A stretch of DNA of 44,851 bases from a virus (IMGVR_UViG_2974654489_000001:1-44851), one strand, 5' to 3'; numbered from the stretch's first letter, positions 12,366-43,025 are shown. The notes: a model not told the origin generated them from the sequence alone. Translations and numbers: made by a program.

Positions 12366-13532
12366 ATGGCTACAACTCCTTTTAAGGGCGCGAATACCGC
12401 GCAATTCTATGTGGCGGAAGTTACCCCGGGCGTGACCCCAGACAACCCTGTCTGGTCGCCGTTGCGTAACACTGGCGGTGTTCCAGCTATTACCCGAGAC
12501 ACGCTGACCTCCAACGAACTGGACGGCAGCCGTGAAACTACATCCATCCGCACCGGCAACAAGCAGGTTAGCGGAGAATACGCTATTGAGCTTAGTTCGA
12601 AAAGCCAGGACGACTGGCTGGCGGGTGCTTTAGGCTCCACGTGGCAATCCGGTAGTTCTCTGACAGGGCTATCAATTACCGTCGCGCCCGCCGGCAAGAC
12701 GTTCACACGCGCCGAAGGTAGCTTTATTACCGACGGCGTTGAAGTGGGCGACCTGATTGCGTTTACCGACTTAACGGGTGATAACGCAAAACCGTTTATT
12801 GTTACCGCAGTAGATGCTCTGGCAGTAACCGGTGCTGGTATCCAGCACACTCTGACCGCAGAGACTGCCACTACCGCTGCTAAGACCGGCGACAAACTGG
12901 AAACCGGCAGTCAGTGTAAGACGTTCTCTATTCTCACCTGGTACAAAGGCCAGTGCGGCGGGGCCAGTGTATATACGCTGACCAAAGGCGTAGAAGTTTC
13001 CGGTTTTACCATCGAACAGGCGGTTAATGCAATGGTAACTGGCAGCTTCCCGTTCATCGGTCGCACTCAGGAGATTCTCACCGAGCAGCCGTCCGGTTCC
13101 GATTTCTCATCTGTTACGTTTGGCGATGAGCCTTTCTCTTCGGTTGACGTTTCCGTGTTCGATGGCTCTACGCCGTTGCGCTGCGACAGTCTGACCATCA
13201 CCAACGACAACAGCGCGTCCGCACAGTTCGAACTTGGCAACACTAACGTTGCGTTTGTGGAGCGTAGTCGCGCGGCTAACACCTTCTCCATCTCTGGTAA
13301 GCTGTACGACATGGCGATGATTCAGAAGTTTATCAACGAGCAGCAGGTGGAGATTAACTCTATTCTGGCGGGGGTAAACGGGGCTATGTCTTTCAGCCTG
13401 AAACGCGCAGAGCTTACGGCTGTTACACCAGAGATTGGGGGGCCAGAGTCAATCACCCAGTCCATTGAAGGGCAGGCTACTGGCAACCAGTACCAGTCGT
13501 CTATTGTCATCCAGCGTATCACCTACGCATAA
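12366..13532 (+). CDS. Major tail protein
   Basis: ATG 12366 after AAGAGG RBS; T/S/G-rich beta-type protein followed by strong terminator; positional. Confidence 0.6.
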   Translation: MATTPFKGANTAQFYVAEVTPGVTPDNPVWSPLRNTGGVPAITRDTLTSNELDGSRETTSIRTGNKQVSGEYAIELSSKSQDDWLAGALGSTWQSGSSLTGLSITVAPAGKTFTRAEGSFITDGVEVGDLIAFTDLTGDNAKPFIVTAVDALAVTGAGIQHTLTAETATTAAKTGDKLETGSQCKTFSILTWYKGQCGGASVYTLTKGVEVSGFTIEQAVNAMVTGSFPFIGRTQEILTEQPSGSDFSSVTFGDEPFSSVDVSVFDGSTPLRCDSLTITNDNSASAQFELGNTNVAFVERSRAANTFSISGKLYDMAMIQKFINEQQVEINSILAGVNGAMSFSLKRAELTAVTPEIGGPESITQSIEGQATGNQYQSSIVIQRITYA

Positions 13533-13535
13533 AAC

Positions 13536-13561
13536 TAAGGCCCCTTTCGGGGCCTTTTTCT
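13536..13561. terminator. Bidirectional intrinsic terminator (AAGGCCCC-TTTC-GGGGCCTT)
   Basis: 8-bp GC stem with A tract upstream and T tract downstream between convergent genes. Confidence 0.7.
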
Positions 13562-25468: not shown

Positions 25469-25485
25469 GGTGGGTTAAATAAAAC

Positions 25486-25511
25486 TAAGGCCCCGTTCGG
25501 GGCCTTTTCTC
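25486..25511. terminator. Bidirectional intrinsic terminator (AAGGCCCC-GTTC-GGGGCCTT)
   Basis: GC stem, A tract upstream, T tract downstream, between convergent operons. Confidence 0.7.
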
Positions 25512-28475: not shown

Positions 28476-28763
28476 CTAACTATAATAGTTCGCTATTAGG
28501 TCGTCAACCTGTTTAAACGAACCGACGACAAAAACATTTGCACCTCTTTTACGCATCCGCTCGTGCTCGCGTAACTGGTGGGGGTCGGGCTTCGTGTTTT
28601 CGTCTTTCTTAACCTCAACGAACCAGACGATGCCGCCGGGGAGAATTACCAGCAGGTCAGGAGCGCCGGAACGTCCTTCGTAGGAAAGTTTACGAACGAG
28701 GCCACCAAGGGCCTCGAATCGCTCTTTTGCGTATTTCTGTATTTTGCCCTCAGGCGTACTCAT
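28476..28763 (-). CDS. VRR-NUC domain nuclease
   Basis: GAPDLLVILPGGIVWFVEVKKDE matches the VRR-NUC / PD-(D/E)XK signature. Confidence 0.7.
   Translation of the reverse strand: MSTPEGKIQKYAKERFEALGGLVRKLSYEGRSGAPDLLVILPGGIVWFVEVKKDENTKPDPHQLREHERMRKRGANVFVVGSFKQVDDLIANYYS
28479..28507 (-). promoter_or_regulatory. Leftward sigma70-like promoter TTGACG-17 bp-TATAGT with AATAG-TTCG-CTATT in spacer (28484-28497)
   Basis: Embedded in the 3-prime end of the VRR-NUC gene; same architecture as promoters at 32077-32105 and 34776-34805. Confidence 0.45.
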
Positions 28764-32008: not shown

Positions 32009-32076
32009 CGTGATTTCTCGCTTTTCAGTTTATATTTCAAAGTTTACTCCGGGAAGCTGCCCGGCCAGTGATTAAA

Positions 32077-32105
32077 ACTATAATAGCTAACTATTCAGGT
32101 GTCAA
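32077..32105 (-). promoter_or_regulatory. Leftward sigma70-like promoter TTGACA-17 bp-TATAGT with AATAG-CTAA-CTATT in spacer (32082-32095)
   Basis: Read directly; upstream of gene 31379-32008. Confidence 0.5.
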
Positions 32106-34744: not shown

Positions 34745-34775
34745 TTGTTTCTCTCCTCTCGTTTGGTATGTGCTA

Positions 34776-34805
34776 ACTATAATAGCGAACTATTCATGAT
34801 GTCAA
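34776..34805 (-). promoter_or_regulatory. Early leftward promoter TTGACA-18 bp-TATAGT with AATAG-CGAA-CTATT in spacer (34781-34794)
   Basis: Read directly; divergent from the regulator promoter. Confidence 0.55.
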
Positions 34806-38055: not shown

Positions 38056-38084
38056 GTTGACTTTTACTAAGAAATATGGTAAGC
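38056..38084 (+). promoter_or_regulatory. Sigma70-like promoter (TTGACT-17 bp-TAAGCT), paralog of the promoter at 6136-6164
   Basis: Identical hexamers and spacing. Confidence 0.5.
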
Positions 38085-38305
38085 TCAGCCTGAGCTTGTG
38101 AAGTATGAACAAGCGACCGCGGCGCGCGGCAGGCGAAACGAGCACGTGTAGCGTGTGGAGTGAGGCTCGCTAGCGCGTTTGGGAGGCCCAAAGTCTATTG
38201 TAATTCCCGCCTAAATATCTAAGTTACTGATTTGCCGTAGGATAGAACCGCAAGCTCACTCACTCACTCTTGGTGCCTTCGGCACCACGTTCGTTTCGTT
38301 TCGCT
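38085..38305 (+). ncRNA. Candidate leader RNA or small RNA (copy 2 of paralogous element)
   Basis: First 70 nt near-identical to 6165-6235; contains CACT x3 and CGTTT x2 repeats and GGTGCC-TTCG-GCACC hairpin followed by U-rich run. Confidence 0.4.
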
Positions 38306-38347
38306 CGCCACCCCCATTAAACGAAAGAATCACAACGGCAACGTAAC

Positions 38348-38387
38348 TAATCTCTTGCACACCCCGACATAATAGGATACTATTCAC
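38348..38387 (+). promoter_or_regulatory. Promoter cassette CTTGCAC-N7-CATAAT-AGGATACTATTCAC with AATAG-GATA-CTATT (38371-38384)
   Basis: Near-identical to the cassette at 15980-16016 in opposite orientation. Confidence 0.5.
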
Positions 38388-38417
38388 TTATCGCAACGAG
38401 ACAGAGGAGTGAGGGTT

Positions 38418-39880: not shown

Positions 39881-40057
39881 ATGTTTTATTACAAAGACGC
39901 TACCGTGGAAGAGATGAAAAATGCGCATGAAGCCCTGGGTTTTCCGTTAGTGTGTGACGGGGATGCAAAAATCGTTTGGGTAGACGATTCTATCTGGCTA
40001 GGACCTATTTTAGACAGAGCATCTAATGCTTATTCTAAGGAGTTAGAAGATGAGTAA
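39881..40057 (+). CDS. Hypothetical small protein (58 aa)
   Basis: Strong RBS GAGAGGAGAGA; below ORF track cutoff. Confidence 0.45.
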   Translation: MFYYKDATVEEMKNAHEALGFPLVCDGDAKIVWVDDSIWLGPILDRASNAYSKELEDE

Positions 40058-40601
40058 CAAACACGAAGTATTCGAGTACCTGATTGACCAACTACGGCAG
40101 CAGGTAAATAACAACCAGTGCGAAGACCTGGCGCATGAGGTGCTGTCACTCAAGAATCAGTTACGTGACGCGTCGGCGCTGGTGGCTGAGTTACAGGGCG
40201 ACAACATTAAGAAATCTGAGCACATATCGCACCTGACAGGGCGAGTTAAGGAGTTACATATGGCATTGGCTGCCGCTGCCGGTGACGTGGAGGCGTACAA
40301 ACTTATCCGCGGACAGGAGCAATCTGGTTGTCGCAAAGAAGACGCTCAGGAATGCAAACACGATTGGTACTTTTACGATAAAGGTGCGTCGATGGCGTGC
40401 AAGAAATGCGGGTTAAAGAGCCCTGGCCGTCAAAAAGAAGATGCGCAGGAATGCTACCATAACTGGCAATTCGTTAATGGTAAGGCTCCTGCCGTATGTG
40501 TTAATTGCGGCGTGACTAAATCAAGCGAGTGTGAGCACGATTGGGAATATTATTACCCCAACGGGAGGCGTTGTACCAAATGCGGGCTGGTAAACTTATG
40601 A
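40050..40601 (+). CDS. Coiled-coil protein with three tandem zinc-ribbon-like repeats
   Basis: Three repeats of (E/Q)EC-x-H-x-W...C-x-x-CG (QECKHDW..CKKCG; QECYHNW..CVNCG; SECEHDW..CTKCG), also visible as nucleotide repeats. Confidence 0.6.
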   Translation: MSNKHEVFEYLIDQLRQQVNNNQCEDLAHEVLSLKNQLRDASALVAELQGDNIKKSEHISHLTGRVKELHMALAAAAGDVEAYKLIRGQEQSGCRKEDAQECKHDWYFYDKGASMACKKCGLKSPGRQKEDAQECYHNWQFVNGKAPAVCVNCGVTKSSECEHDWEYYYPNGRRCTKCGLVNL

Positions 40602-41045: not shown

Positions 41046-41339
41046 ATGAGCCTGGCAACTGACATCCTGAAGCGAAGCGGCCTTGCGCCGCTGTCACCGA
41101 GAGCGAACACCCAGATATACAAGCGACGCCGTAATGCGCTGTACCCAGAGATTCAGGCCAGACGCAAAGCTGTCCGCGCCTGTGGATTCCAGAACGGGAA
41201 GGCCGTGAATCTCGGTGAGTTTAAAACACATGAACGCGCGGCTATCGCTAATCGGTTATTTAATTACTGGAAATCGCTGGGATACGAGGATATTCCGACG
41301 AAACCGCAGAGGCGACAATACATCTGGAGGCACAAATGA
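41046..41339 (+). CDS. Hypothetical basic protein
   Basis: 97 aa. Confidence 0.5.
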   Translation: MSLATDILKRSGLAPLSPRANTQIYKRRRNALYPEIQARRKAVRACGFQNGKAVNLGEFKTHERAAIANRLFNYWKSLGYEDIPTKPQRRQYIWRHK

Positions 41340-41776
41340 CGACTATCGCGTTTGACGGAAAGACAATGGCTTGTGACACGCGTGTTGTGTGTGGGAGTAA
41401 CTGCTACAACACTGACACAAAGATATACGAGAACGAATTTGTTGTTATTGGGGTGGCTGGTGACGCTGGGGTTGGAATCCTTTTAGTGAAGGACGATAGT
41501 ATTTTAGTGCCTAAGCATTATGATTTTGATTTCTCTGCCCTGGTGTGGGTTAAAGACATAGAAACGCTGTGTAAGGTGGAGTTCTATAAATCGTGGGATT
41601 GTGCGCTAAGTTCAGTTATTCCGATTGCGGACAGCTTTGCCGCCGTTGGTTCCGGTGCGCCTTATGCCCTAGCGGCTATGGAATGTGAGTATTCGGCACA
41701 TGGTGGCGTAGCCGTCGCTTCAAAGTTTGACCCTAACACCGGCGGCAAGATTATTACCAAACAACTATTAGGATAA
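41336..41776 (+). CDS. HslV / proteasome beta-subunit-like Ntn hydrolase
   Basis: N-terminal MTTIAF (Thr nucleophile after Met), VIGVAGDAGVG and AAVGSGAPYALAAM motifs parallel HslV. Confidence 0.55.
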   Translation: MTTIAFDGKTMACDTRVVCGSNCYNTDTKIYENEFVVIGVAGDAGVGILLVKDDSILVPKHYDFDFSALVWVKDIETLCKVEFYKSWDCALSSVIPIADSFAAVGSGAPYALAAMECEYSAHGGVAVASKFDPNTGGKIITKQLLG

Positions 41777-41790
41777 TTCCTACCCGTGCT

Positions 41791-41830
41791 ATCCTCCAGT
41801 TACTGCATACTTAATACGCACCTGGAGGAT
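41791..41830 (+). promoter_or_regulatory. Hairpin (ATCCTCCAG ... CTGGAGGAT) pairing the holin RBS
   Basis: 9-bp inverted repeat with about 22-nt loop; 3-prime arm contains the GGAGGA RBS of the TTG-start holin gene. Confidence 0.4.
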
Positions 41831-41835
41831 TAATC

Positions 41836-42144
41836 TTGGATAAATTTACTGAAACAGTGACAGGCTGGCTTCTGGCTGCCGCGCTAGCCGGAGGGGTAAT
41901 CGGACTGCGGCAACATAAGTCCGCTATTTCCGGCCCTATCGACGGATTCTGCTTTATCGCAACTGGCTTCACTTGCGCTGTATTTGGCGCACCTCTTGCC
42001 GCTCAATGGTTTGGAATCACGGGCGACCGTGAAATCGCTGGCCTGGGCTTCATCATCGCCGTCCTCTGGATGCCCATCTATTCCCGCCTCTCCGGTATCG
42101 TCGCCGGAGAATACATCTCACGTCGAGGAGGCCCGGATGAATGA
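41836..42144 (+). CDS. Putative holin
   Basis: 102 aa with 2-3 predicted TM helices, directly upstream of endolysin; TTG start. Confidence 0.55.
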   Translation: MDKFTETVTGWLLAAALAGGVIGLRQHKSAISGPIDGFCFIATGFTCAVFGAPLAAQWFGITGDREIAGLGFIIAVLWMPIYSRLSGIVAGEYISRRGGPDE

Positions 42145-42409
42145 GCTATTCTGGTTCGGCGGTATGCTGGCAATCGGAGGCACATCGCTGTTTAATGTGT
42201 ATCATCCCAGCGTGGATGACGGGCTATTTGGCAGGGTGCTCTATATCCTGACTGCTATCGTCTGCGCCGCCGGGTGTATCCACCTGTTACAGGGCAGCAT
42301 GTCACCAACGCTGCCAGAAACATTAATCACATTAGTTGCGCTGCGTCAGATTCGTCAGGCGTGGCTGTCATACGGAGGACATAAGCGTGTCTCGAAATAT
42401 TTCAGATAA
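42137..42409 (+). CDS. Second small membrane protein (holin or antiholin partner)
   Basis: 90 aa from ATG 42137 overlapping holin end; two hydrophobic segments. Confidence 0.45.
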   Translation: MNELFWFGGMLAIGGTSLFNVYHPSVDDGLFGRVLYILTAIVCAAGCIHLLQGSMSPTLPETLITLVALRQIRQAWLSYGGHKRVSKYFR

Positions 42410-42875
42410 TGGATTGCATTTTACCGCCGCGTGGGAGACTTTCTGCGGAACTGCGTATCGTGCTACATCGAACGAGAAGTACCTTACCATAGGCTACGGC
42501 CATTACGGGCCGGACGTAACCCCGGGTAAGACCATCACACCGGGTCAAGGCCTCCTGTTACTGAACCGCGACATGGCTAAGGCCGTAGCCGCGGTTGACG
42601 CAGCAGCACACCACTCCCTGACACAGGCACAGTTCGACGCTGTGTGTGACCTGGTTTATAACGCAGGTGCTGGTGTGATTGCGGCTACTACTGGCACAGG
42701 TAAGGCGCTGCGTTCCGGTGATATTGCGACGCTGCGGGCTAAGCTGGCGCTGTTCATTAACCAGAACGGCAAACCGTTACTCGGCCTTCGTCGCCGTACC
42801 GCAGGACGTCTGGCGCTGTTCGACGGTAAGCCGTGGCAGGAGGCGGAGGCTATTGGGCGCGCGGTGAAAGGTTGA
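42387..42875 (+). CDS. Endolysin, phage lysozyme (GH24, T4 lysozyme-like)
   Basis: E...D...T region with KYLTIGYGH matching the T4-lysozyme YTIGIGH signature; GTG 42387 after GGAGG RBS. Confidence 0.75.
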   Translation: MSRNISDNGLHFTAAWETFCGTAYRATSNEKYLTIGYGHYGPDVTPGKTITPGQGLLLLNRDMAKAVAAVDAAAHHSLTQAQFDAVCDLVYNAGAGVIAATTGTGKALRSGDIATLRAKLALFINQNGKPLLGLRRRTAGRLALFDGKPWQEAEAIGRAVKG

Positions 42876-42939
42876 CACCTGAGACCAATCCTACGATACT
42901 TAAATCACTCCTTGCTTCATCCCTCTGCTCTCCAGTTTC

Positions 42940-42972
42940 ATCCCGGCCCTGACCCAGCCGGGATTTTTTTTA
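42940..42972 (+). terminator. Strong intrinsic terminator (TCCCGGC-loop-GCCGGGA + T8)
   Basis: 7-bp GC stem followed by TTTTTTTT after endolysin. Confidence 0.8.
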
Positions 42973-42993
42973 TCTATTTTCTGCCATGACTAG

Positions 42994-43025
42994 TTGACTA
43001 TTACCTACGACCCTATTATATTTAC
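42994..43025 (+). promoter_or_regulatory. Sigma70-like promoter (TTGACT-17 bp-TATATT) containing the CCCTATTATATT motif
   Basis: Read directly downstream of the terminator; coordinates approximate. Confidence 0.4.

Follow-up and report, generated by a model that had tools for sequence, protein, structure and literature searches.

Lysis timing determines phage fitness and burst size, and, lambda, P22 and T4 apart, very little is known of what governs holin synthesis. The question is raised here by a perfect inverted repeat directly before the first lysis gene in a 44,851-nt stretch of viral DNA (IMGVR_UViG_2974654489_000001, hereafter the window). A preliminary description of this sequence had proposed that the repeat may fold into a stem occluding the ribosome-binding site of a holin gene, and that this stem, together with a weak start codon, could plausibly control lysis timing, by analogy with lambda S. 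Does the hairpin exist as an RNA structure, what would it do, and is lambda S the right model? The window is the genome of an Escherichia coli phage of the genus Kagunavirus (Guernseyvirinae; K1G/K1H-like siphophages). Positions 41300-42900 are 80-91% identical to more than 100 Escherichia phages of this genus, with Bas73 as the top match (91%).

The repeat lies on the plus strand in a 59-nt spacer between an HslV-like peptidase gene (41336-41776, stop codon 41774-41776) and the first lysis gene (41836-42144). The latter encodes a 102-amino-acid membrane protein of the phrog_2359 'holin' family (E = 2e-29) with a TTG start; relatives carry it as holin or antiholin, and it is on the basis of annotation that we call the product a putative holin. 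A second holin-like gene (phrog_2508, 42137-42409, plus strand, 90 amino acids) overlaps it by 8 nt and has an ATG start and a strong Shine-Dalgarno (SD) sequence of its own, GAGGAGG. The endolysin gene (Phage_lysozyme PF00959, 42387-42875, plus strand) begins with GTG behind its own exposed SD, GGAGGA. Both the cassette and the rightward transcription unit end 3′ of the endolysin gene at a strong intrinsic terminator on the plus strand (42939-42973, CATCCCGGC...GCCGGGAT followed by U8), with an approximate d-score of +29.9, computed with the formula of d'Aubenton-Carafa 1990; phage Sciku has an annotated terminator at the equivalent place. About 20 nt past this terminator, at 42994-43022, lies TTGACT-17-TATATT, the top sigma-70-like site of the plus strand (15.3 bits), and positions 42939-43022 clearly divide two transcription units, the lysis cassette and the small genes leading to the terminase region. 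Plus-strand genes begin near 38.1-38.4 kb, so the lysis cassette comes last in a rightward unit of small ORFs. The genes upstream share the strand of the holin gene, and no terminator was predicted from 39.5 kb to the hairpin.

The geometry of the repeat proved correct to the base as the preliminary description had given it. The 5′ arm (41791-41799, ATCCTCCAG, with a CUCC core at 41794-41797) is the exact reverse complement of the 3′ arm (41822-41830, CTGGAGGAT), 9 nt at 100% complementarity by both sequence reading and a repeat finder. The A/U-rich loop between them (41800-41821, 22 nt, TTACTGCATACTTAATACGCAC) occurs once in the window. The 3′ arm holds the SD sequence GGAGGA at 41824-41829, 6 nt before the TTG at 41836, also as claimed; with a spacing of 5-6 nt, it is calculated to form an SD:anti-SD duplex of −9.3 kcal/mol. 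The holin frame opens after an in-frame TAA at 41812-41814, so that the TTG, the first possible start, is the only usable one, and holin homologues have an M-D-K N-terminus at the matching position.

The folding-energy calculation that had been suggested as a check came out in favour of a stable structure. The 84-nt region folds at −20 kcal/mol, compared with −12.4 ± 3.0 kcal/mol for shuffled sequences (z = −2.53), and 3 of 200 shuffles were as stable. The stem by itself accounts for −12.0 kcal/mol, or −14.2 kcal/mol with the 3-bp inner helix of the minimum-energy fold, a helix which is not conserved and is broken in several relatives' variants; a downstream 6-bp hairpin in the same fold was dropped, as it too is broken in relatives. 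The predicted probability that the holin SD is paired was 0.99-1.00 in every context containing the 5′ arm (85- to 400-nt), the highest among approximately 75 crude gene starts (runner-up 0.88). In read-through contexts of 140-400 nt it held at 1.00. Opening positions −15 to +5 of the holin start would cost 10.2 kcal/mol, which ranks fifth of 67 starts (median 6.9). An RNA thermometer was ruled out, as the stem retains −12.7 kcal/mol even at 42 °C. The window has seven exact inverted repeats of at least 9 bp with loops of 3-40 nt and Markov simulations give 7.4 ± 3.1, so the 9-bp repeat alone is what chance would supply. What goes beyond chance is its placement on the SD together with its conservation and covariation. 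Rfam 15 gave no relevant matches in 41500-42200 at E values up to 10 and none at gathering score over the whole window, and no tRNA or tmRNA genes were found.

We compared 70 Kagunavirus loci from IMG/VR, metagenomes and GenBank. The 59-nt spacer had a mean pairwise identity of 97.3% and just 14 variants, compared with 87% identity for the holin coding sequence, in which 83% of third codon positions vary. An 89-nt segment was present in 119 GenBank phages (95-99% identity in 110 of the 119), and the 1.6 kb around the hairpin is mostly 80-90% identical in relatives. The TTG start was found in 70 of 70 loci. The sole change in the 5′ arm was A-to-G at 41798, seen in 3 of 71 relatives and giving a G.U pair. 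Across the stem, the genus has two variants, both single-sided and at one pair (A-U to G.U and A-U to A.C), and no double-sided compensatory change was present among the loci compared. In TU03, which of the Kagunavirus-type phages is the most divergent, the stem has one G.U pair and is better kept than the loop, which carries five substitutions. In close Kagunavirus relatives the loop and flanks are also nearly invariant, so the conservation there is not specific to the structure.

Coupling to a leader reading frame and coupling to the peptidase gene were both considered and rejected. The leader frame crosses the hairpin in 15 codons, from GTG 41786 to a TAA at 41831-41833 that ends 2 nt before the TTG. 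It has no SD, and its stop is found in the window alone, through a C-to-A change at 41832 (TTAATC, where 69 of 69 other Kagunavirus loci have TTCATC). The frame continues to a TGA inside the holin gene in relatives lacking the change, and its Dhillonvirus counterpart stops after two codons; it is probably meaningless. The peptidase stop codon lies 15 nt before the stem, and many relatives have no peptidase gene. Presence of this gene is polymorphic in Kagunaviruses, with K1H, fBC-Eco01 and many IMG/VR contigs missing it. It is flanked by a 9-nt direct repeat, ACAACTATT, at 41338-41346 and 41759-41767, and phages without it still carry the final 16 nt or so of the gene (AACTATTAGGATAA), pointing to its loss by deletion between the repeats.

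In Jerseyvirus (Jersey, SE2 and others) and Cornellvirus (Shemara and IMG/VR relatives) the first lysis gene is also phrog_2359, and homologous hairpins lie 5′ of the homologous holin. The arms read TGnTATCCTCCAG...CTGGAGGAT in Kagunavirus, TGyTAATCTCCGAA...TTTCGGAGATT in Jerseyvirus and TGnTAAyCTCCGTA...TACGGAG in Cornellvirus. The CUCC/GGAG core is invariant in all three genera, and in Shemara the 3′-arm GGAG is labelled as the RBS by the CPT annotators. Four of the five pairs flanking the core differ on both sides between Kagunavirus and Jerseyvirus, with pairing kept. Counted from the core, pair −1 is C-G in Kagunavirus and U-A in Jerseyvirus, and pair −2 is U-A and A-U, respectively; neither is paired in Cornellvirus. 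Pair +1 is A-U, G-C and G-C in Kagunavirus, Jerseyvirus and Cornellvirus, and pair +2 is G-C, A-U and U-A. Pairs +4 to +6 fall outside the Kagunavirus stem; +4 and +5 are paired and +6 is variable in Jerseyvirus, and in Cornellvirus these positions vary and still pair. Further pairs on the loop side also covary inside Cornellvirus.

These pairs were tabulated from the CUCC/GGAG anchor, with a stem registration of our own. MAFFT cross-genus alignments put the arms out of register and were excluded from pair counting. A covariance model built from Jerseyvirus alone recovered the window hairpin in register, with nine pairs (10.1 bits, E = 0.023 locally); over the whole window the match was not significant (E about 7). 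The covariance-model alignment contained minus-strand and spurious matches and was left out of the counts. We regard the between-genus covariation as the decisive evidence for the predicted hairpin, and on this comparative evidence we take the hairpin at the head of the Guernseyvirinae lysis cassette to be real and kept by evolution.

Further afield, the Dhillonvirus and KW1E holins also belong to phrog_2359, and in both lineages unrelated stems bury a G-rich SD directly before the start. The Dhillonvirus stem (AGTCCCAGTGAG/CTTACTGGGACT) has 12 bp, a 6-nt loop and U6-7, and in Dhillonvirus Ioannina it carries a compensated indel; the KW1E stem is TCCCCGGA/TTCGGGGA. Three more distant homologues (Erwinia RF1, Pantoea MED16 and Pectobacterium Wc4-1) are without such a hairpin, and a metagenome scan for related loci returned Kagunavirus and Dhillonvirus only. 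Across the lineages that have one, the loop ranges from 6 to 22 nt and stem stability from −11 to −21 kcal/mol, and what they have in common is an SD paired to an upstream anti-SD directly before the first lysis gene. The start codon is TTG in Kagunavirus, GTG in Jerseyvirus and ATG in Cornellvirus, Dhillonvirus and KW1E. Of the occluding stem and weak start codon that had been put forward together, the stem is supported in silico, being predicted to be stable and almost fully paired at the SD, and being kept by compensatory changes in three genera, as expected if it works by sequestering the RBS; the weak start codon, which differs by lineage, drops out as a conserved element.

From the folding models and the comparison of lineages, we think it fairly probable that the leader hairpin sequesters the holin SD and strongly represses phrog_2359 translation. 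The anti-SD AUCCUCCAG would pair with the SD region CUGGAGGAU in the 5′ leader of every transcript that has both arms, including any that reads in from the operon of small genes upstream. The 30S subunit would then be barred from the SD and holin translation strongly repressed, and the second holin-like gene and the endolysin gene, with exposed SDs of their own, should be unaffected. By the relation of de Smit and van Duin, a helix of −12 kcal/mol should cut initiation by orders of magnitude. Stems as stable as those modelled across the lineages suggest an off-switch more than a device for fine tuning. At −12 kcal/mol the stem by itself would nearly silence the holin gene, so some bypass should exist. 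We infer that the hairpin forms in vivo, lowers holin translation and is relevant to lysis; it is probably a real but conventional brake on lysis-protein translation. Such a brake would explain why an operon of small genes that look early can end in a lysis cassette and not kill the cell too soon.

A promoter embedded in the hairpin could provide the bypass, in a two-transcript switch of the T4 gene e type, and we put this forward tentatively. The hairpin would silence read-through only, and a weak host-RNAP promoter would initiate at approximately 41802, in the loop, yielding an mRNA without the 5′ arm in which the SD is accessible. The embedded promoter would set lysis-gene expression and keep it independent of upstream transcription, and in Dhillonvirus, KW1E and Jerseyvirus the hairpin would additionally terminate upstream transcription. 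Such a switch, itself doubtful, would extend the SD-sequestration explanation and would not compete with it. The candidate promoter is an extended −10-like motif on the plus strand at 41787-41795, TGCTATCCT (TGnTAnnnT), which overlaps the first bases of the 5′ arm. A weak −35-like hexamer on the same strand, TTAGGA at 41768-41773, lies 16 nt upstream of TATCCT; it doubles as the last two codons of the peptidase gene and is TTAAGA in many relatives. On an approximate sigma-70 matrix, the motif scores 6.7 bits (rank 195 of 44,815 plus-strand positions), and Kagunavirus relatives with TTAAGA at −35 score 9.5 bits.

Several observations favour this switch. TGnTAnnnT recurs at or over the start of the 5′ arm, as TGnTATCCT in Kagunavirus, TGyTAATCT in Jerseyvirus, TGnTAAyCT in Cornellvirus and TGATATAGT in Dhillonvirus, and KW1E has TTGACC-17-TACTAT at the same position. 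The n position is among the few freely variable spacer columns, and in Cornellvirus the motif bases lie outside the stem and are still conserved. On the approximate matrix, Dhillonvirus sites score 11.0-11.3 bits, the KW1E site 12.7, Kagunavirus sites 6.7-9.5 and Jerseyvirus sites 7.2-7.4. A start 7 nt past the hexamer lands beyond CUCC in every lineage, and for a window transcript from approximately 41802 the predicted SD pairing falls to 0.61 from 1.00. Every stem is far more stable than tuning requires, and the T4 genes e, soc, 49 and I-TevI give a precedent (PMC3014915). However, the site in the window is weak, matching the −10 consensus at 4 of 6 and the −35 consensus at 3 of 6 positions; 195 plus-strand positions score as well, and a promoter scan of the window does not call it. 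As a phage-specific promoter consensus, neither CGTGNTATNNT nor TGNTAWYCT is enriched in the genome (for the latter, 5 found versus 4.3 expected). Since the motif coincides in part with the anti-SD arm, pairing already accounts for some of its conservation, and a sigma-70 promoter offers no obvious temporal control.

The evidence for such a promoter is better in Dhillonvirus and KW1E. In Dhillonvirus (HK578, locus L034 at 1399-1440, and the further loci L036-L049 and L092-L105) a canonical intrinsic terminator ends at the first holin ATG, and TGATATAGT, an extended −10 close to consensus, overlaps the 5′ side of that terminator. The TTGACC-17-TACTAT of KW1E is arranged in the same way (locus L053, 543-582), and both look like overlapping terminator/promoter pairs. 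As the canonical terminator abuts the ATG in these two lineages, their cassettes need either a hairpin-overlapping promoter or antitermination. Conceivably, although we would not expect it, a compound module of occluder/terminator plus embedded promoter heads the phrog_2359-type cassettes of Guernseyvirinae, Dhillonvirus and relatives. If true, small siphophages would have arrived anew at the logic of T4 gene e by means of host sigma-70, and the anti-SD arm would double as the −10 region of a lysis promoter.

The terminator-like counterparts also suggest that the hairpin could be an intrinsic terminator or attenuator whose overlap with the SD is incidental genome compaction, a reading that we consider improbable. 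Approximate d-scores are +19 in Dhillonvirus, +28 in KW1E and +7 in Jerseyvirus SE2, each with a U-run, and a terminator-like hairpin at 3376-3398 in the window, its G-rich arm just before ATG 3405, indicates that such a layout can arise by compaction. The Kagunavirus hairpin, however, has a 22-nt loop and a tail of UUAAUCUU or UUCAUCUU, with no U-run, and its approximate d-score is −55, compared with +30 for the terminator at 42939. A terminator scan of the window did not call the 41791-41830 hairpin. The Cornellvirus hairpin has no U-run either (UCCUCNCACCG), and the invariant element across genera is the CUCC/GGAG pairing, not terminator features. As these features vary among lineages, termination is not the common function; SD sequestration can be.

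It is very improbable that the hairpin has no function, as a chance match in a spacer that is a recombination junction spreading between phages. Inverted repeats of 9 bp do occur in the window at the chance rate, and the spacer adjoins the peptidase presence/absence polymorphism and could be a mosaic junction homogenised by recombination; yet a chance repeat would not be expected to show compensatory changes in three genera, or to have analogues in two more lineages, placed alike before the same gene family, and it is the holin SD that has the highest pairing probability of about 75 starts. Extremely improbable is a DNA-level site, with the inverted repeat as operator of a dimeric phage or host regulator of the lysis cassette: the repeat is a perfect 9-bp one in a spacer strongly conserved as a whole, and the centres of its arms are separated by 31 bp, or about 3 helical turns, but half-sites elsewhere are not beyond chance (9 found with up to 1 mismatch versus 6.0 expected), the distance between the arms varies widely among genera (6- to 22-nt loops) with pairing kept by compensatory changes, G.U pairs kept in the stem are meaningful only in RNA, and no candidate regulator was identified. 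An operator array was likewise rejected, with half-sites not enriched and the loop single in the window.

Other signals in the window were recorded alongside this analysis. The hairpin at 3376-3398 (AAAAGGCCCC GATA GGGGCTTTCTT) lies directly before a 597-amino-acid ORF (3405-5198), and its G-rich 3′ arm is the only SD-like sequence of that ORF. No other gene start costs as much to open as ATG 3405 (18.3 kcal/mol), and the layout matches that of the Dhillonvirus and Jerseyvirus holin hairpins. A 71-nt direct repeat (6136-6206 and 38056-38126, 87% identity) opens with a sigma-70-like promoter, TTGACT-17-TGnTAAGCT, which scores 13.3 bits in both copies and is followed by an approximately 40-nt shared transcribed segment; it could be a repeated promoter plus leader, or a small RNA. 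Positions 38056-38400 contain no convincing ORF, a hairpin at 38271-38287 and no Rfam match. At 40050-40601, a 183-amino-acid ORF has three tandem Cys-rich repeats (E-C-x-H-D/N-W...C-x2-C-G) in its C-terminal half, which look like zinc ribbons. Three minus-strand promoters (28478-28499, 32076-32097 and 34775-34796; TTGACA-17/18-TATAGT, 10-11 of 12 matches) have in common a 22-nt repeated −10 region, AACTATAATAGC.AACTATT, and are probably the main early promoters of the phage. Two 30-nt terminator-like hairpins at 13529-13558 and 25479-25508 (ATAAAACTAAGGCCCC.TTCGGGGCCTTTT, 97% identical to each other) are situated at the two boundaries at which gene orientation switches.

Among E. coli and Salmonella phages, Kagunaviruses and Jerseyviruses rank with those isolated most frequently for therapy and biocontrol, and a conserved cis element at the cassette head would be a simple handle for engineering lysis time. 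We found no description of the hairpin in the literature searched, nor transcription start site, transcriptome or RNA-structure data for these phages (Kagunavirus and Dhillonvirus). The hairpin is apparently undescribed so far, and the class of mechanism is well known; the gain is a well-supported further example, possibly with an embedded promoter, and not a new principle.

Four known kinds of element invite comparison. Like terminators that abut the next start, the Dhillonvirus, KW1E and Jerseyvirus counterparts are terminator-shaped and have a G-rich 3′ arm serving as SD; the Kagunavirus hairpin differs in its 22-nt loop and the missing U-run. In the MS2 coat-gene model of de Smit and van Duin, translation falls steeply with helix stability. 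The Kagunavirus hairpin resembles RBS-sequestering hairpins of this type in that its SD lies inside a stable local helix, and by analogy its long single-stranded loop could act as a ribosome standby site. Unlike in some such systems, no ligand, temperature or protein trigger is apparent here.

In lambda S and P22 gene 13, an SD-including stem-loop (sdi) directly upstream of the holin gene affects holin translation and hence lysis timing, and the lambda sdi stem sets the ratio of initiation at Met1 (antiholin S107) to that at Met3 (holin S105) (bioRxiv 10.1101/2025.05.14.654169). The analogy with lambda S drawn in the preliminary description is apt for an SD-occluding stem at a holin gene and fails for the dual start. 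In that system two in-frame starts 1-3 codons apart yield a holin and an antiholin distinguished by a positive charge at the N-terminus. The holin in the window has a single start, its N-terminus (M-D-K-F-T-E-T-V) has no dual-start motif, and the next in-frame GTG is codon 8 and has no SD. The lambda stem is also shorter and weaker, and we found no sequence or protein homology to the lambda S system. The window hairpin is not a member of the lambda S dual-start system.

T4 genes e, soc, 49 and I-TevI have an inhibitory hairpin at the translation initiation region (McPheeters et al. 1986, as reviewed in PMC3014915). The resemblance to gene e is that of a phage lysis gene with its SD buried in a leader hairpin on read-through transcripts. 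In T4 the internal promoters are mapped late promoters (TATAAATA, gp55-dependent) with a clear temporal logic, whereas the candidate here is a predicted weak host sigma-70 extended −10, and the gene concerned encodes a holin-family membrane protein, not a lysozyme. By analogy, the logic of T4 gene e appears to be at least as good a model for this locus as lambda S.
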